Counted from the stretch's first letter, positions 4,259 through 20,460 are shown. The stretch: 64,000 nucleotides of DNA from Gemmatimonadota bacterium (GCA_036556205.1 DATBJW010000008.1:1977-65976); one strand, 5' to 3'. The notes: generated by a model from the sequence alone, not told the origin. Translations and numbers: made by a program.

Positions 4259-5497
4259 ATGGCCACGCCCGCCAACCCAGCCCTGCACGCCGTCCCGTCC
4301 CGGAGCGACGGCGCGCCCGGACTGGAACGCCCGCGCCGGGTGGCGCTGCTGGGTTGCACGGGCTCGGTCGGAGCGGCCGCCCTGGCCGTGCTGCGCCGGC
4401 TGGGACCCGGCTTCGAGCTCTACGCCGTCTCGGCTCGCAGCAGGCTGGAGGCTCTGCTCGCCTGCAGCCGCGAGTTTCGCCCGCGACGGGTCGTGTTGTG
4501 CGAGCCGGCGGCCGCCCGAGGCTACGCCGCGGCCGGCGGCTGCGGCGACGTCTCGGTGGGGGACGAGGCCCTGGCCGACCTGGCGGCGGACCCGGCGGTG
4601 GACATCGTGGTGAACGCGCTGGTCGGCTCCGTCGGACTGCTTCCCACCCTGCGGGCGCTGGAAGCGGGCAAGCGCGTCGCCCTCGCCAACAAGGAGGCGC
4701 TCGTGATGGGCGGTGGCCTCGTCCGCCGGGCGCTCGAGCGCGGCGGGGGAGAGCTGATCCCCGTCGATAGCGAGCACAGCTCGCTGTTCCAGCTCCTCGA
4801 GGGCCGCCCCGCCTCGCAGGTGCGGCGGCTCGTGCTGACCGCTTCGGGAGGGCCCTTCCGCGGTCGCACGCGCGCGGAGCTGGCGGGCGTCACCGTGGAC
4901 GAGGCGCTGGCGCACCCCACCTGGAGCATGGGTCCCAAGGTGACCGTGGACTCGGCAACGCTCGCCAACAAGGGTCTCGAGATCATCGAGGCCCACGTCC
5001 TGTTCGACGTGCCCTACCCGGCGATCTCGGTCGTCATCCACCCGCAGTCGGTGGTGCACGGGCTCGTCGAGCTCGCCGACGGCTCGTTTCTGGCGCACCT
5101 CGGGCGTCCGACGATGGAGCTGCCGGTTCAATACGCCCTCACGTACCCCGAGCGCATGGAGCTTCCTCCCGCCCGCCTCTCGCTGCGCGAGCTCGGCAGC
5201 CTGAGCTTCGAAGCCGCCGACGAGAGCGCGTTCCCGGCCCTCGCGCTGGCGCGTGCCGCGGGCGAGGCGGGCGGCACCTGTCCGGCCGTCTTCAACGCGG
5301 CGAACGAGGCCGCCAACCTGGCGTTCCGGGAGGGGCGCATCGGGTTCGGCGAGATCCACGACGTCCTCGCGCACGCCCTCGAGCAGGTTACGCCCGAGCC
5401 GGTCCACGAAGTCGCGGACGTGCTGCGCGCCGACATGGCGGGGCGGAGTGCGGCGTGGCGGTGGGTGGAGAACGCAACCCTGGCCCGAAAGAGCTGA
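4259..5497 (+). CDS. dxr: 1-deoxy-D-xylulose 5-phosphate reductoisomerase
   Basis: ATG 4259 is in frame within track ORF 3626..5497; the upstream 211 aa overlap cdsA and are Arg/Gly-rich artefact. Motifs: LLGCTGSVG (NADPH), LANKEALV, DSEHSSLFQ, HPTWSMGPKVTVDSATLANKGLE. Confidence 0.95.
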   Translation: MATPANPALHAVPSRSDGAPGLERPRRVALLGCTGSVGAAALAVLRRLGPGFELYAVSARSRLEALLACSREFRPRRVVLCEPAAARGYAAAGGCGDVSVGDEALADLAADPAVDIVVNALVGSVGLLPTLRALEAGKRVALANKEALVMGGGLVRRALERGGGELIPVDSEHSSLFQLLEGRPASQVRRLVLTASGGPFRGRTRAELAGVTVDEALAHPTWSMGPKVTVDSATLANKGLEIIEAHVLFDVPYPAISVVIHPQSVVHGLVELADGSFLAHLGRPTMELPVQYALTYPERMELPPARLSLRELGSLSFEAADESAFPALALARAAGEAGGTCPAVFNAANEAANLAFREGRIGFGEIHDVLAHALEQVTPEPVHEVADVLRADMAGRSAAWRWVENATLARKS

Positions 5498-5501
5498 CCC
5501 C

Positions 5502-6914
5502 ATGGTCACGATCCTCGTCACGATCCTCGTCCTGGGCATCCTGGTCTTCGTGCACGAGCTCGGTCACTTCGTGGCCGCGAAGCTGGGGGGGATCCAAGTC
5601 CCGCGCTTCTCGATCGGGCTGGGGCCGCGCCTGTTCGGCTTCCGCATCGGCGAGACCGACTACTGCATCTCGGCCATCCCGTTCGGGGGCTACGTGAAGA
5701 TGGCCGGCATGGAGGCCGACGAGGCGGTGAGCGGGCTGGAGGGGGATCCGCTGCTGCAGGACGCGGGGCCGCGTGACGTCGCCCGTGTGGACTCCGGGAG
5801 CGCGGCCCAGGACGTCGCGTTCGACCCCGAGCGCGGCTTCGACCGGAAGCCTCTCTGGGTGCGCCTGGTCGTGATCCTGGCCGGCGTGTTCATGAACTTC
5901 GTGTTCGGGTTCCTGGTCTTCGTGTGGCTCTCGTGGAGCCAGGGCGAGCCGCGTCTTCCGACCATCGTCTCCGACGTCGATCCCGAGGTCGCGCTCCTGG
6001 ACGGGCGGCTGGAGGGCTGGCGGGGTCGCGCCATCCGGTCGGTGAACGGCGCTCCGGTCGACACCTGGGCCCAGCTCGACGAGCGGCTGCACGCCGCACC
6101 CGACGGGACGCCGCTGCGGATCGGGTTCGCGGACGGGGAAGAGGTGACCCTCGATCCCGCCGTGAACGGCTCGGAGCTCGCGCGCGGGGTCGCCTTCGGG
6201 CTTCCGCCCGTGATCGGCGAGGTCCAGCGCGGAAGCGTGGCGGAGGCCGCGGGCCTAGGGTCCGGAGACCGGATCCTGGCCCTCGACGGCCGGCCGGTCG
6301 TCGTCTGGGACGACATCCCGGACTACGTTCGGAGCCGCGCGGGCCAGCCGATACGCGTGCGCTTCGAGCGCGACGAGACGCCCGGCGCCCCCGGCGGTGA
6401 GCGGACGCTCGAGGTCGAGGTCGTGCCCGGCCGCCAGCAGGAGCCCGGCGCCGACAACCGCTTCGTCCAGGTCGGGTTCCTGGGTGTCGCGGCCAAGCTC
6501 GAATCGGACCCCATCAGCTTCCCGGAGGCCGTGCGCCAGGGCTGGCACCTCACGGCTCGCGCGGGCGGGCTGATCCTTCACGGGCTCGGCCAGCTCGTGA
6601 CCGGCAAGCTGTCGCTGCGAGCGCTCGGCGGCCCGGTGGTGATCGGCCAGATCACCGGCTACTACCGGCGCCAGGGCATCGACCAGCTGCTCTACTGGAT
6701 GGCGCTGTTCAGCATCAACCTGGCGATCCTGAACCTGCTCCCCATCCCCGTGCTGGACGGCGGGCACGTCCTGTTCCTGCTCATCGAGGGCATCCGGGGG
6801 CATCCGCTCTCTCCACGCTTCAAGGTGCGGCTCTCCCAGGTGGGCATGGTGCTCCTGATCCTGCTCATGGCGTGGGCCGTGACCAGCGACCTGTTGCGGC
6901 TGCTCGAACGTTAG
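5502..6914 (+). CDS. rseP: RIP site-2 metalloprotease RseP
   Basis: ATG 5502 is in frame in ORF 5253..6914. Evidence is the N-terminal TM with the HELGHF zinc motif, a central PDZ-like region, and C-terminal LAILNLLPIPVLDGGH. Confidence 0.93.
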   Translation: MVTILVTILVLGILVFVHELGHFVAAKLGGIQVPRFSIGLGPRLFGFRIGETDYCISAIPFGGYVKMAGMEADEAVSGLEGDPLLQDAGPRDVARVDSGSAAQDVAFDPERGFDRKPLWVRLVVILAGVFMNFVFGFLVFVWLSWSQGEPRLPTIVSDVDPEVALLDGRLEGWRGRAIRSVNGAPVDTWAQLDERLHAAPDGTPLRIGFADGEEVTLDPAVNGSELARGVAFGLPPVIGEVQRGSVAEAAGLGSGDRILALDGRPVVVWDDIPDYVRSRAGQPIRVRFERDETPGAPGGERTLEVEVVPGRQQEPGADNRFVQVGFLGVAAKLESDPISFPEAVRQGWHLTARAGGLILHGLGQLVTGKLSLRALGGPVVIGQITGYYRRQGIDQLLYWMALFSINLAILNLLPIPVLDGGHVLFLLIEGIRGHPLSPRFKVRLSQVGMVLLILLMAWAVTSDLLRLLER

Positions 6915-10377: not shown

Positions 10378-10841
10378 CCGGCGCCGACGCGACCCGTGGA
10401 GCCGTGCAGCGCATGCGGGTGCGTGTCCGCTACGCCGAGACCGACCAGATGGGAGTCGTCTACCACGCACACTACCTGGTATGGATGGACGTCGGACGCA
10501 CCGAGCTCCTTCGCGCCCTGGGTCATCCCTACGACGCGCTGGAACGCGCCGGCCTGCTGTTCGCGGTCTCGGACGTGAGCTGCCGCTTCGTTGGCGCGGC
10601 CCGCTACGGCGACGAGGTGGAGGTGGAGACCCGCGTCGCCGAGGTGCGCAGTCGCCAGGTGTGTTTCCGCTACCGGATCACGAGGGGCGGCGGCGAGCCC
10701 GTCGCGGAAGCATCCGCCACCGTGCTCGCACTCGGGCGCGACCGCCGGCCGCGAAGGATCCCGGCCGAGCTGCTCGCCTCCCTGCGCCCTCCGACCGGCG
10801 CGCGCCGCGCGCCCGTCCTCGAAGACGTGGCTCTGACATGA
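10374..10841 (+). CDS. YbgC/4HBT-type acyl-CoA thioesterase
   Basis: The hot-dog fold signature RVRYAETDQMGVVYHAHYLVWMDVGRTELLRALG is present. The start could be ATG 10413. The stop overlaps the next gene's ATG (ATGA). Confidence 0.8.
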   Translation: MTGADATRGAVQRMRVRVRYAETDQMGVVYHAHYLVWMDVGRTELLRALGHPYDALERAGLLFAVSDVSCRFVGAARYGDEVEVETRVAEVRSRQVCFRYRITRGGGEPVAEASATVLALGRDRRPRRIPAELLASLRPPTGARRAPVLEDVALT

Positions 10842-13771
10842 AAGGGCGCGGGCCACGAAAGGCCGGTCGGCGGGTCGGCGAGCGCGTTTGCCGCGGGCCG
10901 ATCGCGGCCGCGCTCGGGCTGCTGGCACTCGTGCTGGCGACAGCCGAGGCCTCCGGCCAGATCGTTCCCTTCGGCAAGAACAAGATCCGCTACGAGGACT
11001 TCGACTGGCACGTGCTGCACGGCGAGCACGTGGACGTCTACTTCTATCCCGAGGAGGCGGAGGTGGCGCAGGTCGCCCTGCGCGAGGCGGAGCTGGCCTA
11101 TGCCGACCTGGAGGTCAAGTTCGACTATCATCCGACGGAGCGGGTCCCGCTCATCATCTACAGCTCGCACGTCCACTTCGAGCAGACCAACATCCTGTCC
11201 GGCTTCATCCCCGAGGGTGTGGCCGGGTTCACCGAGTACCTCAAGGGCCGCGTCGCGCTCCCCTTCAACGGGTCCTACTACGACTTCCGGCACGTGATCA
11301 TCCACGAGCTGGTGCACGTCTTCCAGCTGCGCAAGATGACGCACGAGCGGGACCTGCATCCGAGCAGCGGCTCCCTGGGCCTGCCGCAGTGGTTCACGGA
11401 GGGGCTGGCGGAGCACTGGTCGAGCCAGTGGGGGTCGGAAGGGAATCTCTTCGTGGGCGACTTCGTGCTCTCCGGCAACCTGCCGCACATCCAGGAGCTC
11501 TACGCCTACAACGGAACGTTCGCGATCTACAAGCTGGGCCAATCCGTGCACGACTTCCTGGGGCGGGAGTTCGGCGAGGAACGCATGGCGCTGTTCTTGG
11601 AGAGCCTGTGGAAGTACGACAACCTGGACAGCGCCTTCAAGGCGATCTACGGGCTCAGCCTGGACGAGCTGGACGCGCGCTGGCGCTACGACCTGGAGCA
11701 GCGCTACTACCCTCAAGTCTCGCGCGCGACGCCGCTCGACCTCGCGGCCCAGCGCGTGATCACGAAGAGCCGCGCCAACTTCAAGCCCACCGTGGTGCCG
11801 CGGCCCGACAGCCTGCCCTCCCGCTTCTGCTACGTCTCGCCGCGGACCGGCTTCACGAACATCTATTGCGCGGACCTGGCCGGCGTGGACCGCCACGTCG
11901 AGACTGTGCTCGAGACGGAGCGGCGGCCCGAGTTCGAGTCCATCCACGGGTTCACCTCCAGTCTCGACGCCAATCTCCGGGGCGAGCTGGCGTTCGTCTC
12001 CAAGTTCGGGGAGAGCGACGCGCTGTTCGTGATGGACCTGGCGTCACGGAAGATCCGGCTCCAGCGCCGCTTCCCGGACCTGGTGGCGCTGTCGAGCCCG
12101 AGCTGGGATCCGTCGGGGGAGGCGCTGAGCTTCGTGGGGCTCTCAAAGGCCGGGTTCTCCGACCTCTACATCTATCGGATCCCGGCGGACAGCCTGGAGC
12201 GCCTGACGGAGAGCCGCTTCCTCGAGGAGGATCCGGCCTGGTCGCCCGACGGCGCCTGGATCGTCTACGCCACCGACAGCATCCCCGGGGGGAACCGCGG
12301 CTACAAGAACCTGGTCGCGCGCGAGCTCGCCACCGGCAGGTTGCGCCCGCTCACGCGCGGCCCCTGGCGCGACACCGATCCGCGCTGGTCGGCCGACGGA
12401 CGGCGCGTGGTCTTCACGTCGGACCGGTCCGGCCTGGCGGCGCTCTACGAGGTGGACCTGCAGGGCGACGGCCGCCGGCTCATCGAGTCGAGCGGGGGCG
12501 TCCTGGACGGCGAGCCGTTCCGCACGCGCGACCCCGACGGCACGGAGCGCGAGGCGCTGCTCTTCGCGGGCTACGAGAACGGCCAGGCCGCGATCTGGAG
12601 CGCGACCGTGCCCGACAGCGGAGGCGAGGCGATCACGCTGGCCCCCGACACCGCCTCCCTCGGTTGGAGCTGGCAGGAGGTGCTGGCTGACTCGGGCCGG
12701 GCCGTGGCCTCGGCCCCGTACCGCCGGCGCTTCTCGCTGGACCTGGCCGCGGGAGGGACGGCGGTGGGCGGCAACACCAGCGTCGAGGCGGTCCAGGCGC
12801 TCTTCAGCGACTTCCTGGGCGACCATCTGATCCTGCTCGAGCTCTACAGCTTCACCCAGGACGTGGAGAACTTCTTCGACAACCTGGGCGGCGAGGTCAC
12901 CTACCTGAACCTGAAGCGGCGTCTGAACTGGGGGGCGACCGCCTACCGGGTGAATGCCAACTACCTGACGAACGGGACGCTCAACTCGCCGCCCGAGCTG
13001 TACCGGGTCGACCGCTACGGCGGAGGTGGGATCCTCAGTTATCCGCTCTCCAAGTTCCGGCGCATAGAGACGCGCCTCAACCTCGAGCACAACGACACGT
13101 TCGCGATCGGGCAGTCGTTCGAAGGCGGCCTGGTGGATCGGACCGGGATCATCGGGATCACGGGGGTCTCATACATCAAGGACAACACGCTCTGGCTGCC
13201 CACGGGACCCATCGACGGCGAGCGTTACAACGTGAGCCTGGGAGGCACCGCCAACCTGTCCGACGCTGAGGCCGAGAGCTTCTTCGCCGTCTTCGACTAC
13301 CGGCGCTACTTCCGGCTCGGCCTGCAGAGCGCCTATGCGGTGCGCGGCCAGTTCCTCTACTCCGACGGCCTCCTGCCGGTGCGCTTCGTGATGGGCGGCT
13401 CGGGCACCCTGCGCGGATATCCGCGCTTCGAGCTGCTGGGGTCGCGGTACGCGCTCGTGAACCAGGAGCTGCGCTTCCCCCTGCTGACGGGCTTCGCGTT
13501 CGGCACGCCCATCCTGGGCGCGGTCCGTTTCCCGGGGGTCCAGGGGGCGCTGTTCCTGGACCTGGGAAACGCGTGGGAAGAGGTCGAGCAGGAGGAGTTG
13601 GGGTTTCCCGGCGTGCTCGGGAGCTACGGGCTGGGCCTGCGGATGAGCCTGGGCGGCCCACTCGTGCTGCGGCTGGATTTCTCGCGACTCTTCGAGATCG
13701 ACGACAAGCGAGACCTGCGCGTCTACAACGACAAGAACCGCATCGACTTCTTCATCGGGTTCAACTACTGA
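10838..13771 (+). CDS. Outer-membrane fusion protein: signal peptide + HExxH peptidase (MA_2-like) domain + TolB-like PD40 repeats + Omp85/surface-antigen beta-barrel
   Basis: ATG 10838 is in frame in ORF 10481..13771. The signal peptide is AAALGLLALVLATAEASGQ. HELVH lies at nt 11303-11317 with a downstream TEGLAEHW. Repeated SPxWSPDG / DPRWSADGRRVVFTSDRSG motifs mark PD40 repeats. The C-terminal region GGSGTLRGYP..VNQELRFPL..GALFLDLGNAW ends FFIGFNY, as in an Omp85 barrel. Confidence 0.8.
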   Translation: MKGRGPRKAGRRVGERVCRGPIAAALGLLALVLATAEASGQIVPFGKNKIRYEDFDWHVLHGEHVDVYFYPEEAEVAQVALREAELAYADLEVKFDYHPTERVPLIIYSSHVHFEQTNILSGFIPEGVAGFTEYLKGRVALPFNGSYYDFRHVIIHELVHVFQLRKMTHERDLHPSSGSLGLPQWFTEGLAEHWSSQWGSEGNLFVGDFVLSGNLPHIQELYAYNGTFAIYKLGQSVHDFLGREFGEERMALFLESLWKYDNLDSAFKAIYGLSLDELDARWRYDLEQRYYPQVSRATPLDLAAQRVITKSRANFKPTVVPRPDSLPSRFCYVSPRTGFTNIYCADLAGVDRHVETVLETERRPEFESIHGFTSSLDANLRGELAFVSKFGESDALFVMDLASRKIRLQRRFPDLVALSSPSWDPSGEALSFVGLSKAGFSDLYIYRIPADSLERLTESRFLEEDPAWSPDGAWIVYATDSIPGGNRGYKNLVARELATGRLRPLTRGPWRDTDPRWSADGRRVVFTSDRSGLAALYEVDLQGDGRRLIESSGGVLDGEPFRTRDPDGTEREALLFAGYENGQAAIWSATVPDSGGEAITLAPDTASLGWSWQEVLADSGRAVASAPYRRRFSLDLAAGGTAVGGNTSVEAVQALFSDFLGDHLILLELYSFTQDVENFFDNLGGEVTYLNLKRRLNWGATAYRVNANYLTNGTLNSPPELYRVDRYGGGGILSYPLSKFRRIETRLNLEHNDTFAIGQSFEGGLVDRTGIIGITGVSYIKDNTLWLPTGPIDGERYNVSLGGTANLSDAEAESFFAVFDYRRYFRLGLQSAYAVRGQFLYSDGLLPVRFVMGGSGTLRGYPRFELLGSRYALVNQELRFPLLTGFAFGTPILGAVRFPGVQGALFLDLGNAWEEVEQEELGFPGVLGSYGLGLRMSLGGPLVLRLDFSRLFEIDDKRDLRVYNDKNRIDFFIGFNY

Positions 13772-14967
13772 GCGGGCGCCTCCGGCGCACCGGAGGCCGC
13801 GGTCGCGGGAGCCGACGTTCCCGCCCCGGGGCCCGCGTCCAGGAGCGCGAGGGTGCCCCGGTCCGTGACCACGGCCAGGCGTCCCTCGACCCAGACCGGC
13901 GTCGCCGCCGCCCCCGCGAGCTCGGCGCGGCCCAGAACGGCGCCGTCGGCTGCCGCGAGCGTCCACACCGCGCCCGCGAGATCGGCCACGGCCACGCGGC
14001 CGCCGTCGGGCGAGACGGCGGGAGGTGCCGCCGCCAGCGCATCGAGGTCGCGCTCCCAGAGCGGCGTCCCGGACGGCAGGGCGTAGGCCCGGAGGCGCCG
14101 GTCCTTTCCGGCCGCGACCAGGAGGCCCGGCCCGGCGGCGGGGGCCCGCTGGAGCGGCGCCGAGGACACGTCCAGGGTGCCCGCGGCGAGCTCGTGGTCG
14201 AAGGAGCGGATGCGGCCGTCGAAGGTGGCCGCCGCGAACCCGCCCCCGGGGAGCGGGACGAGCTCCGGCGTGGCGGGGGATCCGAGGTCGAGGGATCCCA
14301 GGCGACGGCCGGTGGCCGGATCCAGGCGGACGAGCGTTCCCGCGGCCGAGAGGACGATCAGATCGCCGTCCGCGAGAAGCGAGCCGCCCGGGAAGACGCC
14401 CTCCGCGCGCGTCTCCCAGATCTGGTCGCCCGTGCGGGTGTCCACGGCACGGATCCAGCCGCCCAGCGAGACGAAGAAGGCGCGCGCCTCCTCCACCAGG
14501 GGCGGCTGCGAGACGTCGCCCACCTTGCGGGTCCAGCGCGTCAGTCCGCTGCGCGGGTCGAGGGCGTAGGCCGTGGCGTCGGGGTGCGGCGAGACGACGA
14601 TCAGCTGGTCGCCCGCGAGTCGCGGAGACGCCTGGAAGCCGCGCGCGAGCCCGTGCGACCAGAGCTCCCGGCCCGTGGTCAGCTCGAACGCCTTGACGTT
14701 CGAGCGCGCGGTCGCCACGTACAGCCTGCCCCCCGCGGCCAGCGGCTGGGCCGTGGCCCCGCGCCCGGCACCGACCTGCCAGACCACGGCGAGCGGCGGG
14801 GGAAGCCCGGCGTCCGAAGCGGCGGGGGTCGTGGCCTCCGGTTCCGCCGGGCCGCTCTGGGCGGCGAACGTCGGGGTCGTGAGCAGGAGACCCGCGAGCG
14901 TGCTCGCGACGAAAGCCGGTCGCGCTCGAGGTGCTCGAGGATTCTCTGCCGAAGGGTCGCGGGTCAC
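13765..14967 (-). CDS. PQQ-like (BamB-like) beta-propeller repeat protein, secreted
   Basis: GTG start. The signal peptide is [21 protein letters not shown]. Repeated motifs (G.LYVA.....V.A.D..TG...W) are typical of PQQ/BamB propellers. The stop overlaps the convergent upstream gene by 7 nt. Confidence 0.7.
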
Positions 14968-17561: not shown

Positions 17562-18710
17562 ATGCGAACGTGGGCGGACATACGGTTCGAGGCCCTGGCC
17601 GCCAACCTCGCAGCGCTGAAGAAGCGTTTGGCGCCCGGCGGCGGCCTGCTCTTGCCCGTGAAGGCCGACGCCTACGGCCACGGCGCGGCGCAGATCTCGC
17701 TCTGGGCCGAGGAGCTGGGCGTGGGCTGGCTCGGAGTGGCCTCGCTCGACGAGGCGACCTCGATCCGGCGGGCCGGTGTGCGCGCCCGGCTCCTGCTCTT
17801 CGGGCCGCTCCCCGACCTCGGGCTGGCGGAGCTGGTCGCCTGGCGCGTGACGCCCACGCTCTGCTCGGTGGACGATGCCCTGCGCTGGGCACGCGCGGCC
17901 CCCGGCGTGCCCGCGCACGTGGAGATCGACACGGGCATGGGTCGCGGCGGCTTCGACTGGCGCCGCGTCACGGAGGTCGCCCGGCTGGCCGGGATCGCGG
18001 GTCTCGTGTGCGAAGCCGCCTACACGCACTTCGCGGCGGCCGAGACCGAGCCCGCCTTCACGATCGCCCAGGACGAGCGCTTCCGGCGGCTCCTGGCCGA
18101 TCTCGCCGGCCGGGGCCTGCGCTTTCCGATGGTGCATCTCTCGAACAGCGCCGCCTTGCTCCTGCATCCGGGAAGGCCCGAGGATCTGGCTCGGCCCGGG
18201 ATCGCGGTGTACGGCGCGCTGCGCGAGACGGGCGTGCGGCCCGACGTGGCCCGCGAGTTCCGTCCCGTCCTCGAGTGGTGGGCGCCCGTCGTGCAGGTGC
18301 GGGAGTTCCTGCCCGGCGACACCGTCGGGTACGGCCGCACGGCCCGCATTGAGACGCCCACGCGCGCGGCGCTGCTCGGGGTGGGCTACGGCGACGGGTA
18401 TCCCCGCTCCCAGGTGGCCTCGGGCTTCGTGCTGCTGGGCGGCGAGCGCTGCCCGCTCCTGGGTCGCGTGTCGATGGACCTCGTGATGGTGGACGTGGGA
18501 CGGGCCGGTGCCGTGCGCGAGGGCGACGCAGCGCTCCTGGTAGGCGAGGCGCCCGGGCTCTCCGCCGAGGAGGTGGCGGCGCGCTCGGGGACGATCAGCT
18601 ACGAGCTCCTGACCGGCATCCGTTCGCGCGTCGAGCGCCGCTACCTGCGCGGCGCGGGCGGAAGAGAGCGGGCGGAACCCCTCGCCCGGGGTGCGGTACA
18701 GACCGCGTGA
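17562..18710 (+). CDS. alr: Alanine racemase
   Basis: The PLP-lysine motif PVKADAYGHG is present, with a C-terminal VGYG..SMD pattern. Length is 382 aa. Confidence 0.92.
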   Translation: MRTWADIRFEALAANLAALKKRLAPGGGLLLPVKADAYGHGAAQISLWAEELGVGWLGVASLDEATSIRRAGVRARLLLFGPLPDLGLAELVAWRVTPTLCSVDDALRWARAAPGVPAHVEIDTGMGRGGFDWRRVTEVARLAGIAGLVCEAAYTHFAAAETEPAFTIAQDERFRRLLADLAGRGLRFPMVHLSNSAALLLHPGRPEDLARPGIAVYGALRETGVRPDVAREFRPVLEWWAPVVQVREFLPGDTVGYGRTARIETPTRAALLGVGYGDGYPRSQVASGFVLLGGERCPLLGRVSMDLVMVDVGRAGAVREGDAALLVGEAPGLSAEEVAARSGTISYELLTGIRSRVERRYLRGAGGRERAEPLARGAVQTA

Positions 18711-19153
18711 CGGCCGCGCGGGAGGGAAAGGCCGCGGTGAGCGGGCCCGACGCTCGCTTGCTGGCCGCGGCGGCGGCGGCCCGCGTGCACGCTCATGCTC
18801 CGTACTCGGGGTACGCGGTCGGCGCGGCCCTCGAGACCGCGAGCGGCCGCGTCTTCACCGGCGCCAACGTCGAGAACGCATCCTACGGCATCACGCTTTG
18901 CGCCGAGCGCGTGGCGCTCGTCAAGGCGGTCTCGGAGGGCGAGCGCGCGTTCGTCCGCATCGCCGTCGTCGGCGAAGGCGCGCCCCCTTTCCCGTGCGGC
19001 GCCTGCCGCCAGGCCCTGGCGGAGTTCGCGCCCGATCTCGAGGTGCTGGTTCGCGGCTCGGGGGGGCTCGCGCGTCGGCGTCTCTCGGAGCTCCTCCCGG
19101 ACCCGTTCCGTCTGACCGCGCGCGGGAAGGCGCGCCAACCCCGAGGCTCGTGA
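18707..19153 (+). CDS. cdd: Cytidine deaminase
   Basis: Zinc motifs CAERVA and PCGACRQ are present. The GTG start overlaps the alr stop. Confidence 0.9.
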   Translation: MTAAREGKAAVSGPDARLLAAAAAARVHAHAPYSGYAVGAALETASGRVFTGANVENASYGITLCAERVALVKAVSEGERAFVRIAVVGEGAPPFPCGACRQALAEFAPDLEVLVRGSGGLARRRLSELLPDPFRLTARGKARQPRGS

Positions 19154-20460
19154 CCTTAGGCGCCGATTCCCGCTTGCCCCAGCCCTGCTTGCGCGCCGGA
19201 GCCGCCCGTGCCCCGGCAGGCCGGGACCGCCGTCTGGCCGCCGCCGCGTGGCTCGTTCTCGCCGTGGTTGTCGGCGCCTGCTCCGAGGACGACGAGAACC
19301 CGGTCGGGGCGGACGAGCTTCCCCAGCTCAGCGATTCGATCCAGGAGGTCGTCCTCTTCCCGGTTCAGGCCACGAGCTTCGAGACGCCTTCCTCGGACCG
19401 CGTGTTCGGGGACACCCTCGTCGCGGCCCAGGACCTGCCCGACGCGGCGGGGTACGAGAGCCGCGTGCTGATGCGCTTCGCGCTCGCCATCGCCGACACG
19501 TCACGCGGTCCCGTGACCGTGGACAGCGCGCAGGTGCGGCTGCTCGTCACGAGCGTGGCGCCCGACTCGCTGCGCTTCGTCCTGAATCGGGTGACCGAGA
19601 GCTGGAGCGAGGAGGAGGTGTCCTGGGACGAGCGGAGCTTCGGCGTTCCGTGGTCCACGCCCGGCGTGACCTTCGATCCCACGCCCGTGCTGGAGGGCAC
19701 GCTCGTCGCCGACAGCTCGTTCTTCTCGCTTCCCGACACCCTGGTCCAGCGCTGGCTCGACGAGCCCCAGAGCAACGCGGGTCTCGTGCTGCGCGTGGAG
19801 ACCGCGGGCGGCGCAGGACGCTTCCGGGCCGCGAGCACGACCGGCCTCACGAACGAGAACGGCCCCCGGATACGCTTGTTCCTGACGGTCGGCGACTCGT
19901 CGTCGGTGGCCGGCGTGCTGGCCACGAACGACGCCTACGTCACGGAGTTCCGGGGCACGACCCTGCCCGGGATCACCGTAGGCGTCGACCCCTTCGTGCG
20001 CAGCCTGCTCAAGTTCGACCTGAGCGCCGTTCCCCCCAACGCGAGCATCAACCTGGCCGAGCTGCGCCTCGTTCCGCGGCAGGTCGTGACCCCACTCGAC
20101 TCGCTGCGTCTCGAGCTGCGACGCGTCGTGAGCCCCGAGCTCGGCGGCGGGACGGTCTTCACGAACAACGACGTCTTCATCGTCGTCTCGGACACGATCC
20201 GGGCCGACTCGGCGATCACGATCACGTCGGTCAGGCTCTCCGCGCTCGTGCGCCTCTGGCAGGCGAGTGCCACCTTCAACCAGGGCCTGGGCCTGCAGAC
20301 CCAGCGTCGCAACCCCGCCGCGGGCGCCAACCTGGTGCCCAGCGGGAATCTCGGCTTCGCCGTCTTCGGCGACGCCTCGGCGCCGCTGGAGGACCAACCC
20401 CGGCTGCGGATCATCTTCACGCCGGCTTTGCAGTCCGACCTGGATCGCGCGCGCCGATGA
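19150..20460 (+). CDS. Lipoprotein with two tandem DNRLRE-like beta-sandwich domains
   Basis: In frame in ORF 18691..20460. Candidate starts are GTG 19150 (GTGA overlap with cdd), TTG 19174 and TTG 19189. The lipobox-like LAVVVGAC has its Cys codon at 19279-19281. Two repeats share the pattern (R.L.F.L ... A.L.L ... RV...W.E..V.W / GLxLxxE). The family assignment is tentative. Confidence 0.6.
   Translation: MTLGADSRLPQPCLRAGAARAPAGRDRRLAAAAWLVLAVVVGACSEDDENPVGADELPQLSDSIQEVVLFPVQATSFETPSSDRVFGDTLVAAQDLPDAAGYESRVLMRFALAIADTSRGPVTVDSAQVRLLVTSVAPDSLRFVLNRVTESWSEEEVSWDERSFGVPWSTPGVTFDPTPVLEGTLVADSSFFSLPDTLVQRWLDEPQSNAGLVLRVETAGGAGRFRAASTTGLTNENGPRIRLFLTVGDSSSVAGVLATNDAYVTEFRGTTLPGITVGVDPFVRSLLKFDLSAVPPNASINLAELRLVPRQVVTPLDSLRLELRRVVSPELGGGTVFTNNDVFIVVSDTIRADSAITITSVRLSALVRLWQASATFNQGLGLQTQRRNPAAGANLVPSGNLGFAVFGDASAPLEDQPRLRIIFTPALQSDLDRARR

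Follow-up and report, generated by a model that had tools for sequence, protein, structure and literature searches.

Described relatives of a peptidase-propeller-Omp85 fusion

The Omp85/TpsB superfamily has been split into ten subfamilies, one of them termed 'WD40-like' and carrying a Pfam profile of PF07676 repeats plus PF01103 (Heinz & Lithgow 2014, PMC4104836). The Phyre2 templates given for it in Table S3 of that study are BamA (4k3b), TolB (2ivz and 2w8b) and 'aminopeptidase' structures (1z5h, 4kxd and 4ar1), and the members listed include C1A6X2, D0MEQ5 and H1XQ58 (PMC4104836). The proposal made in 2014 was a BamA-BamB-like scaffold, in a text that covers the propeller only, and a question of topology was raised for the Omp85 proteins lacking POTRA domains (PMC4104836). 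Here we describe such a protein, encoded by one gene in a 64,000-nucleotide (nt) stretch of DNA from a Gemmatimonadota bacterium (GCA_036556205.1, DATBJW010000008.1:1977-65976), the whole of which we call the window. From the N to the C terminus, the product of 977 amino acids (aa) comprises a signal peptide, a predicted gluzincin peptidase domain, a TolB-like β-propeller and an Omp85 barrel, and it is referred to below as the fusion protein. One of the members listed in the catalog, C1A6X2, is presumably an accession of Gemmatimonas aurantiaca.

The fusion protein belongs to the WD40-like Omp85 proteins cataloged as a subfamily in 2014. It has the same Pfam profile (PF07676 and PF01103, without PF07244), the BamA-barrel, TolB (2ivz and 2w8b) and 4ar1 templates were found again independently in our searches, and nothing categorical sets it apart. 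An initial annotation of the window, made from the sequence, had implied that the architecture was novel; this was overstated, since WD40-like Omp85 proteins had already been defined in PMC4104836. Its further remark that the protein is not functionally characterized agrees with two papers from 2024, in which the WD40-like/peptidase Omp85 subfamily still counts as uncharacterized (PMC11116518, PMC11358297). The fusion protein is thus real, with an architecture already cataloged, and what our analysis adds to the 2014 text is the conservation of the zinc site, the existence of two paralog lineages, the universality of the family in Gemmatimonadota and Eisenbacteria, and the gene neighborhood.

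Two further systems offer functional comparisons. BepA is described in PMC8423444 and PMC13478230 as an HExxH zinc protease of the periplasm that works where the outer membrane (OM) faces inward and acts on stalled outer membrane proteins (OMPs) such as LptD. We propose BepA as a functional analog of the fusion protein and claim no homology: BepA is a soluble M48 enzyme without a propeller that is recruited to BamA by tetratricopeptide repeats, whereas the fusion protein has an M9/M1-like gluzincin covalently joined to its own Omp85 barrel. PlpD (type Vd), an Omp85 protein of the patatin-like kind, shares with the fusion protein an N-terminal enzyme domain on an Omp85 barrel. However, it combines a patatin lipase with one POTRA domain, and the fusion protein combines a zincin with a propeller and has no POTRA domain. 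PlpD was formerly thought to be secreted and keeps its enzyme domain in the periplasm (PMC11116518).

Architecture and zinc site of the fusion protein

A profile search of a library clustered at 50% yielded more than 150 full-length representatives of the family, and 90 of them, 27-45% identical to the query, were aligned for conservation analysis. Residues H156, E157 and H160 of the HExxH motif as well as E188 and G189 were invariant in 90/90 representatives. When residues 41-300 were modeled separately with AlphaFold2 (AF2), a predicted local distance difference test (pLDDT) score of 82.9 was obtained. Foldseek analysis of this model revealed peptidase domains of M9 collagenases as the top matches (ColH, 4ar1, was best, accompanied by ColT and ColG; template modeling [TM] score, 0.56-0.59), and they were followed by M1 and M61 aminopeptidases. 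In line with this, a profile of the peptidase domain matched ColG in the PDB at a marginal E value of 0.012; the alignment pairs HExxH with HExxH and WFTEGLAE with WFDEGTAEF, at an equal spacing of 28 residues. The fusion protein therefore shares with M9/M1 gluzincins the fold (TM, 0.5-0.59) and an HExxH motif followed 28 residues on by a glutamate in W-F-x-E-G-x-A-E, as in ColG. It lacks the activator and collagen-binding domains of collagenases and the N- and C-terminal domains of M1 enzymes, and by score it belongs to neither family. Furthermore, 40/50 relatives matched the Pfam family Peptidase_MA_2 at an E value of ≤0.001 (best E, 1.3e-15). Since H156, E157, H160 and E188 are strictly conserved, the sequence indicates a zinc peptidase that is apparently active and not degenerate. 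A dead peptidase domain was considered as well and was ruled out by the invariance of the active site in the 90 relatives.

A second conserved element of the peptidase domain comprises residues 113-133 and lies 23 residues ahead of the HExxH motif. Most of its positions are invariant across 29 Gemmatimonadota sequences, and F114, T117, E126, G130 and E133 are at least 90% conserved across the 90 representatives. In the AF2 model, residues 113-130 of this near-invariant segment have a pLDDT below 50, and the segment may be an edge strand before the HExxH helix or a mobile loop for substrate binding. Its G-x-x-E pattern is loosely reminiscent of GxMEN, the exopeptidase motif found in M1 enzymes.

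The propeller was detected by sequence and by structure. The Pfam PD40 family matched at 50.6 bits (cut-off, 20.9), with the best repeat at residues 502-532, and three PD40-type motifs are located at residues 419-432, 464-477 and 513-532. A PDB sequence search with the fusion protein returned TolB propellers only (E, 2.5e-16; residues 417-549). The full-length AF2 model, based on an alignment of 29 homologs (pLDDT, 78.4; predicted TM score [pTM], 0.78), contains a mixed α/β domain at about residues 50-300, about 23 strands at 305-600, consistent with six blades, and 16 long strands at 632-975. Foldseek matched the propeller to TolB 2hqs with a root mean square deviation of 2.2 Å over 250 columns, and to 2ivz and 2w8b. 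The six-bladed PD40 propeller is thus shared with TolB. However, the TolB_N domain and tol-pal context of TolB have no counterpart here: Pfam did not find TolB_N in the fusion protein, and the NCBIfam model TIGR02800 (TolB) scored 93 bits versus a cut-off of 343. Matches of the propeller to DPPIV_N, Dpp5 and Atxe2 were also detected (Pfam/NCBIfam).

The barrel matched the Pfam Omp85 family PF01103 at residues 717-975 with 34.6 bits (cut-off, 24), and in Foldseek it matched barrel-only BamA chains (TM, 0.60-0.63). It contains the motifs GGSGTLRGYP (residues 853-862), VNQELRFPL (874-882), GALFLDLGNAW (903-913) and the terminal FFIGFNY (971-977). The LRGY motif sits in the loop joining strands 11 and 12 of the AF2 model. 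A 16-stranded barrel, a loop-6 RGY, a strand-13 FxDxG and an aromatic C-terminal β-signal are features shared with BamA and TamA. In contrast to BamA and TamA, which bear POTRA domains, the fusion protein has none: no POTRA family was found in it at an E value of ≤1 (Pfam), and the BamA model TIGR03303 scored 24.9 bits versus a cut-off of 297 (NCBIfam). The linker between propeller and barrel has only about 30 residues and no β-α-α-β-β unit in the AF2 model. Moreover, a Pfam scan of 50 representatives detected POTRA in none of them (0/50). TpsB/FhaC proteins combine a ShlB-type barrel with POTRA_2; for the fusion protein, PF03865 scored 12.5 bits versus a cut-off of 22.7, and no POTRA_2 match was obtained in Pfam.

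These data bear out the layout given in the initial annotation, in which a signal peptide is followed by a gluzincin, a TolB-like propeller and an Omp85 barrel: Pfam, the PDB search, both AF2 models and Foldseek agree on it. The lack of POTRA domains, which had also been claimed, is upheld by the Pfam searches of the protein and its relatives and by the short linker, and the C-terminal Omp85 barrel by PF01103, the 16 modeled strands and the BamA barrels found with Foldseek. The Peptidase_MA_2-like gluzincin layout holds through the invariant HExxH and Glu188 and the M9/M1/M61 fold matches, with a Pfam score of the protein itself that is below the cut-off. All quoted motifs were found at their places when checked on the translation, HELVH being residues 156-160 (nt 11303-11317) and FTEGLAEHW residues 186-194. 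We conclude that the N-terminal 600 residues are, as modeled, a gluzincin with an intact HExxH+E site followed by a six-bladed TolB-type propeller without POTRA, and that the C-terminal 346 residues are modeled as an Omp85 barrel of 16 strands, in which loop 6 carries RGY and strand 13 carries FxDxG.

The open reading frame (ORF) at 10838-13771 (+) comprises 977 codons and is free of stops upon translation. Its frame is also open upstream as far as 10481. Since the third-position GC content of this extension (10481-10838) is 0.55 in the frame of the fusion gene and 0.87 when read as the overlapping thioesterase gene, the ATG at 10838 was assigned as the start, and a longer ORF starting at 10481 was ruled out. 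The signal peptide was called by inspection and hydropathy. Inspection revealed a basic n-region and a putative cleavage site between AEA and SGQ; the hydrophobic stretch in between, IAAALGLLALVL, has a mean hydropathy of 2.88. In the full-length AF2 model, the signal peptide region is of low confidence, with a helix at residues 21-32. The coordinates of all features are listed in Table 1.

Table 1. Features of the fusion gene and its two adjacent genes (positions in the window)
Feature	Position	Strand	Evidence
YbgC/FadM-family acyl-CoA thioesterase gene, 155 aa	10374..10841	+	Pfam 4HBT 62.8 bits; TIGR00051 97.8 bits (cut-off 68.7)
Peptidase-propeller-Omp85 fusion gene (P0001), 977 aa	10838..13771	+	ORF translation, Pfam, PDB search, AF2, Foldseek
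Predicted signal peptide, residues 1-38 (basic n-region, IAAALGLLALVLATA, AEA/SGQ)	10838..10951	+	Inspection and hydropathy
Gluzincin (clan MA) peptidase domain, residues ~45-300	10970..11737	+	Pfam below cut-off, AF2 domain model, Foldseek, PDB profile
Conserved loop, residues 113-133 (HFEQTNILSGFIPEGVAGFTE), N-terminal to the active-site helix	11174..11236	+	Alignments, AF2
HELVH, predicted zinc-binding and catalytic motif (H156, E157, H160)	11303..11317	+	Invariant in sets of 29, 90 and 50 relatives
Glu188 in WFTEGLAE, predicted third zinc ligand, 28 residues past H160	11399..11401	+	Invariant; aligns to ColG
TolB-like PD40 β-propeller, residues ~305-600, about six blades, without TolB_N	11750..12637	+	Pfam, PDB search, Foldseek, AF2
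Linker, residues ~601-631, at the POTRA position of BamA/TamA	12638..12730	+	Mostly coil in AF2, pLDDT 53-67; no POTRA match
16-stranded Omp85 barrel, residues 632-977, aromatic β-signal FFIGFNY at the end	12731..13768	+	PF01103, AF2, Foldseek
Loop-6 LRGY (R859, G860, Y861), residues 858-861, Omp85 'lid-lock' signature	13409..13420	+	Conservation, AF2
FLDLG (FxDxG), residues 906-910, strand 13, pairs with the loop-6 arginine	13553..13567	+	F906 and D908 ≥90% conserved or invariant; AF2
PQQ_2/BamB-like propeller gene, 400 aa, signal peptide, without lipobox cysteine	13765..14967	-	PF13360 125.9 bits; TIGR03300 130.6 bits (cut-off 285)

Conservation, paralogs and gene neighborhood

A word-based search for homologs gave 1585 matches, the best being proteins of about 980 aa from Gemmatimonadota metagenome-assembled genomes (MAGs), labeled 'BamA/TamA family', 'PD40 domain-containing' or 'Peptidase MA-like'. 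In addition to the zinc site, conservation across the 90 representatives reaches at least 90% at the barrel residues R859, G860, F906 and D908. The Pfam scan of 50 representatives detected PD40 in 47, Peptidase_MA_2 in 40 and Omp85 in 38. At a threshold of E ≤1e-30, the family was present in all 151 Gemmatimonadota genomes sampled and in 41/41 genomes sampled from the phylum to which the Eisenbacteria loci belong; for its occurrence beyond Gemmatimonadota and Eisenbacteria we relied on PMC4104836.

Most of the Gemmatimonadota and Eisenbacteria genomes sampled contain two types of the family. Proteins of the query type have about 940-1000 aa and are 40-47% identical across their full length, and those of the other type are longer (about 1050-1200 aa). 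This suggests two old paralog lineages, and the longer type seems near-universal in both groups. The second copy in the genome under study is a protein of 1083 aa (contig C64, L089:1233-4484, minus strand) with 29% overall identity to the fusion protein (E, 1e-83). It comprises a Peptidase_M9/BSP-like HExxH domain, PD40 repeats and Omp85, and it retains FGKNK, HELVH and WFxEGxAE. Its gene is adjoined by the housekeeping genes rpsF, pth, rplY and prs and by genes for DUF2232 and DUF2339 proteins. A full-length ortholog with 49% identity to the query in the genome search (45% in the table of loci), as close as the Gemmatimonadota matches, was found on a 7.7-kb contig (L012, DASVDK010000240.1) of a MAG labeled Thermodesulfobacteriota; this looks like a mis-binned contig and not a true occurrence in that phylum.

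The genome also encodes a separate BamA of 775 aa with five POTRA stretches (contig C46), an 850-aa POTRA-bearing Omp85 paralog and two barrels that are about 460 aa long and lack N-terminal domains. TolB itself is present in canonical form (363 bits), encoded in a tolQ-tolR-tolA-tolB-pal-cpoB cluster (contig C37, L092:4231-9254). This cluster is without ybgC, and an epimerase gene lies ahead of tolQ. With a canonical BamA and a full tol-pal cluster present in the genome, the fusion protein adds to both and substitutes for neither. Two candidate roles were rejected on these grounds: that of the organism's BamA, because of the 775-aa BamA and the 850-aa protein, and that of a TolB replacement, because of the canonical TolB in its cluster.

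Gene neighbors were counted in 80 related loci. Immediately upstream of the fusion gene lies the thioesterase gene, whose stop codon shares the sequence ATGA with the start ATG of the fusion gene; judged by this overlap, the two genes are translationally coupled. The thioesterase is the only above-cut-off TIGR00051 match in the genome, which is 89% complete. A homolog is present upstream of the fusion gene in 65/80 loci, where it either adjoins directly or is separated by a gene for a HEAT-repeat cyclophilin of about 720 aa (Gemmatimonadales and Longimicrobiales loci). The product of the inserted gene has a hydrophobic N-terminal segment, HEAT repeats and a C-terminal cyclophilin-type prolyl isomerase domain (L071:3854-6019 and L061:3684-5915; also L018, L025 and L086).

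Downstream, the fusion gene and the BamB-like gene converge with a tail-to-tail overlap of 7 nt (13765-13771), which leaves no space for separate terminators. The BamB-like protein is the genome's best match of this kind (92 bits; next, 35). Such a gene is immediately downstream of the fusion gene in 21/80 loci, 17 of which are convergent. Most of the convergent loci keep the order of the window: asparaginase, CMD, thioesterase, fusion, BamB-like, aminoacyl-tRNA synthetase, MazG and Alr genes. In Eisenbacteria, the BamB-like gene follows the fusion gene on the same strand, RNase H and zinc-ribbon protein genes lie upstream and RecJ lies downstream, and the link to the thioesterase is missing. 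The pairing with the BamB-like gene amid other neighbors in Eisenbacteria lends some independent support to a functional pairing.

Two other genes of the window were recorded. A gene for an RseP-like site-2 protease (Peptidase_M50 plus PDZ; 5253-6914) is located four genes upstream in the same codirectional block and is retained in at least seven syntenic loci among those whose flank extends that far. A 589-aa ORF after alr (18691-20460) gave weak, sub-threshold Pfam matches only (TGFb_propeptide, CBM96 and Disaggr_repeat).

Possible function in the cell envelope

The reading we favor, and whose chance we put at somewhat less than even, is that the fusion protein is a zinc peptidase anchored in the OM, facing the periplasm and gated by its propeller, with a role in the quality control or turnover of envelope proteins. 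A quality-control or processing role had already been suggested in the initial annotation, and it is plausible; the invariant active site and the BamB-like neighbor fit it. To our knowledge, the N terminus of the barrel is periplasmic in every Omp85 protein studied so far. Since this is so and the enzyme domain of PlpD stays in the periplasm, the protease and the propeller are most likely periplasmic as well, with the barrel holding them at the inner face of the OM. Propellers gate or dock substrates in tricorn, DPP-IV-type and prolyl-oligopeptidase-type enzymes. By analogy with these enzymes and with Tol-Pal, the propeller would be a gate or docking platform that lets nothing but peptides or unfolded chains reach the zinc site. 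Envelope polypeptides that are unfolded, for example stalled or misassembled OMPs, would be trimmed or degraded by the enzyme. The barrel would anchor the protein and might also be a receptor for β-signals; a candidate partner is the soluble BamB-like propeller encoded next to it. Overall, the fusion protein would combine an Omp85 scaffold with a quality-control protease resembling BepA, as a covalent analog of BepA acting with the β-barrel assembly machinery (BAM).

A bolder version, which we regard as distinctly unlikely, would make the fusion protein and the nonlipoprotein BamB-like propeller a self-contained proteolytic Omp85 machine. Here the barrel seam would capture the β-signal of stalled or surplus OMPs and pass the chain to the propeller-gated gluzincin. 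Such a 'disassembly' counterpart of BAM, with BepA and BamA in one polypeptide, would be universal in Gemmatimonadota and Eisenbacteria as two ancient, specialized paralogs.

Several points weigh against the quality-control protease. The gating of the active site by the propeller is argued from analogy and not from the geometry of the model. In Pfam, the fusion protein itself matched Peptidase_MA_2 (PF13485) at residues 144-284 with 26.3 bits, under the cut-off of 32.4; this weak match is shored up by the fold model, the invariant motif and the stronger matches of the relatives. The commonest neighbor is a presumably cytoplasmic YbgC-type thioesterase, which a protease model leaves unexplained. 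The BamB-like neighbor is far under the BamB equivalog cut-off (130.6 versus 285 bits) and has no lipobox. Moreover, the neighbor links are partial, the BamB-like gene being found in 21/80 loci that belong mostly to one syntenic clade; since most of these loci share one gene order, shared ancestry explains much of the adjacency. Finally, a literature search for a functional study of this architecture returned only the 2014 catalog and later mentions as 'uncharacterized'.

The neighboring genes can also be read in favor of other functions. The scaffold hypothesis put forward in PMC4104836 would make the fusion protein an accessory of BAM or of the translocation and assembly module (TAM). In this BamA-BamB-like fusion, the propeller would dock assembly factors, the barrel would aid OMP insertion and the peptidase would contribute a minor processing activity. 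The conserved lid-lock motifs, the BamB-like gene adjacent in two phyla and the cyclophilin gene inserted into the operon in other clades are consistent with it. However, lid-lock motifs are general Omp85 signatures, found also in members without insertase activity, and the strictest family-wide conservation concerns the zinc site and not any known substrate-binding element. The protein has no POTRA domain to receive substrates, and BamA and a second POTRA-bearing Omp85 are already present in the genome. We consider the scaffold unlikely. We hold a role as an envelope tether or in lipid homeostasis to be similarly improbable. The propeller would then bind a Pal-like or peptidoglycan-associated partner, the protein would work with the coupled YbgC-type thioesterase in OM lipid or envelope integrity, in parallel to Tol-Pal, and the zincin would be a peptidoglycan or lipoprotein peptidase. 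The thioesterase gene does lie upstream in 65/80 loci, is coupled to the fusion gene in the window and encodes the genome's only YbgC/FadM match above the cut-off; in addition, the tol-pal cluster lacks ybgC, and the best matches of the propeller are TolB proteins. This reading is opposed by the absence from Pfam results of the TolB_N domain, which contacts TolA, by the missing thioesterase link in the Eisenbacteria loci and by the lack of an adjacent Pal-like gene. Furthermore, PD40 propellers are common in peptidases, as illustrated by the DPPIV_N, Dpp5 and Atxe2 matches.

A further alternative concerns the location of the enzyme: the barrel would export its own protease and propeller in a type V-like manner for extracellular degradation and nutrient acquisition. 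Secreted collagenases are among the structures most closely related to the peptidase domain, and the topology question raised for non-POTRA Omp85 proteins (PMC4104836) bears on this possibility. It is nevertheless very unlikely, since PlpD, the one tested case of supposed self-export, is periplasmic (PMC11116518), and a zincin of 250 aa together with a folded six-bladed propeller would be a poor passenger for an Omp85 pore. The universal presence of the family, with two copies per genome in 41/41 genomes of the Eisenbacteria phylum and in most of the 151 Gemmatimonadota genomes, and its housekeeping neighbors suit a core envelope function better than foraging. The periplasmic N terminus of Omp85 barrels mentioned above also argues against surface exposure. 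An OM peptidase associated with type IX secretion is highly improbable: scans of the genes flanking each of the two paralogs, and of Eisenbacteria and Gemmatimonadales loci, revealed no family of this system.

Omp85 proteins are at the core of OM biogenesis, and nearly all knowledge of them comes from POTRA-bearing members. A subfamily with a conserved zinc protease and a propeller instead of POTRA domains represents a sizeable part of envelope biology in lineages related to the Fibrobacteres-Chlorobi-Bacteroidetes (FCB) group. If the fusion protein is indeed an Omp85-based quality-control protease, this type of barrel would serve the removal of proteins as well as their insertion.

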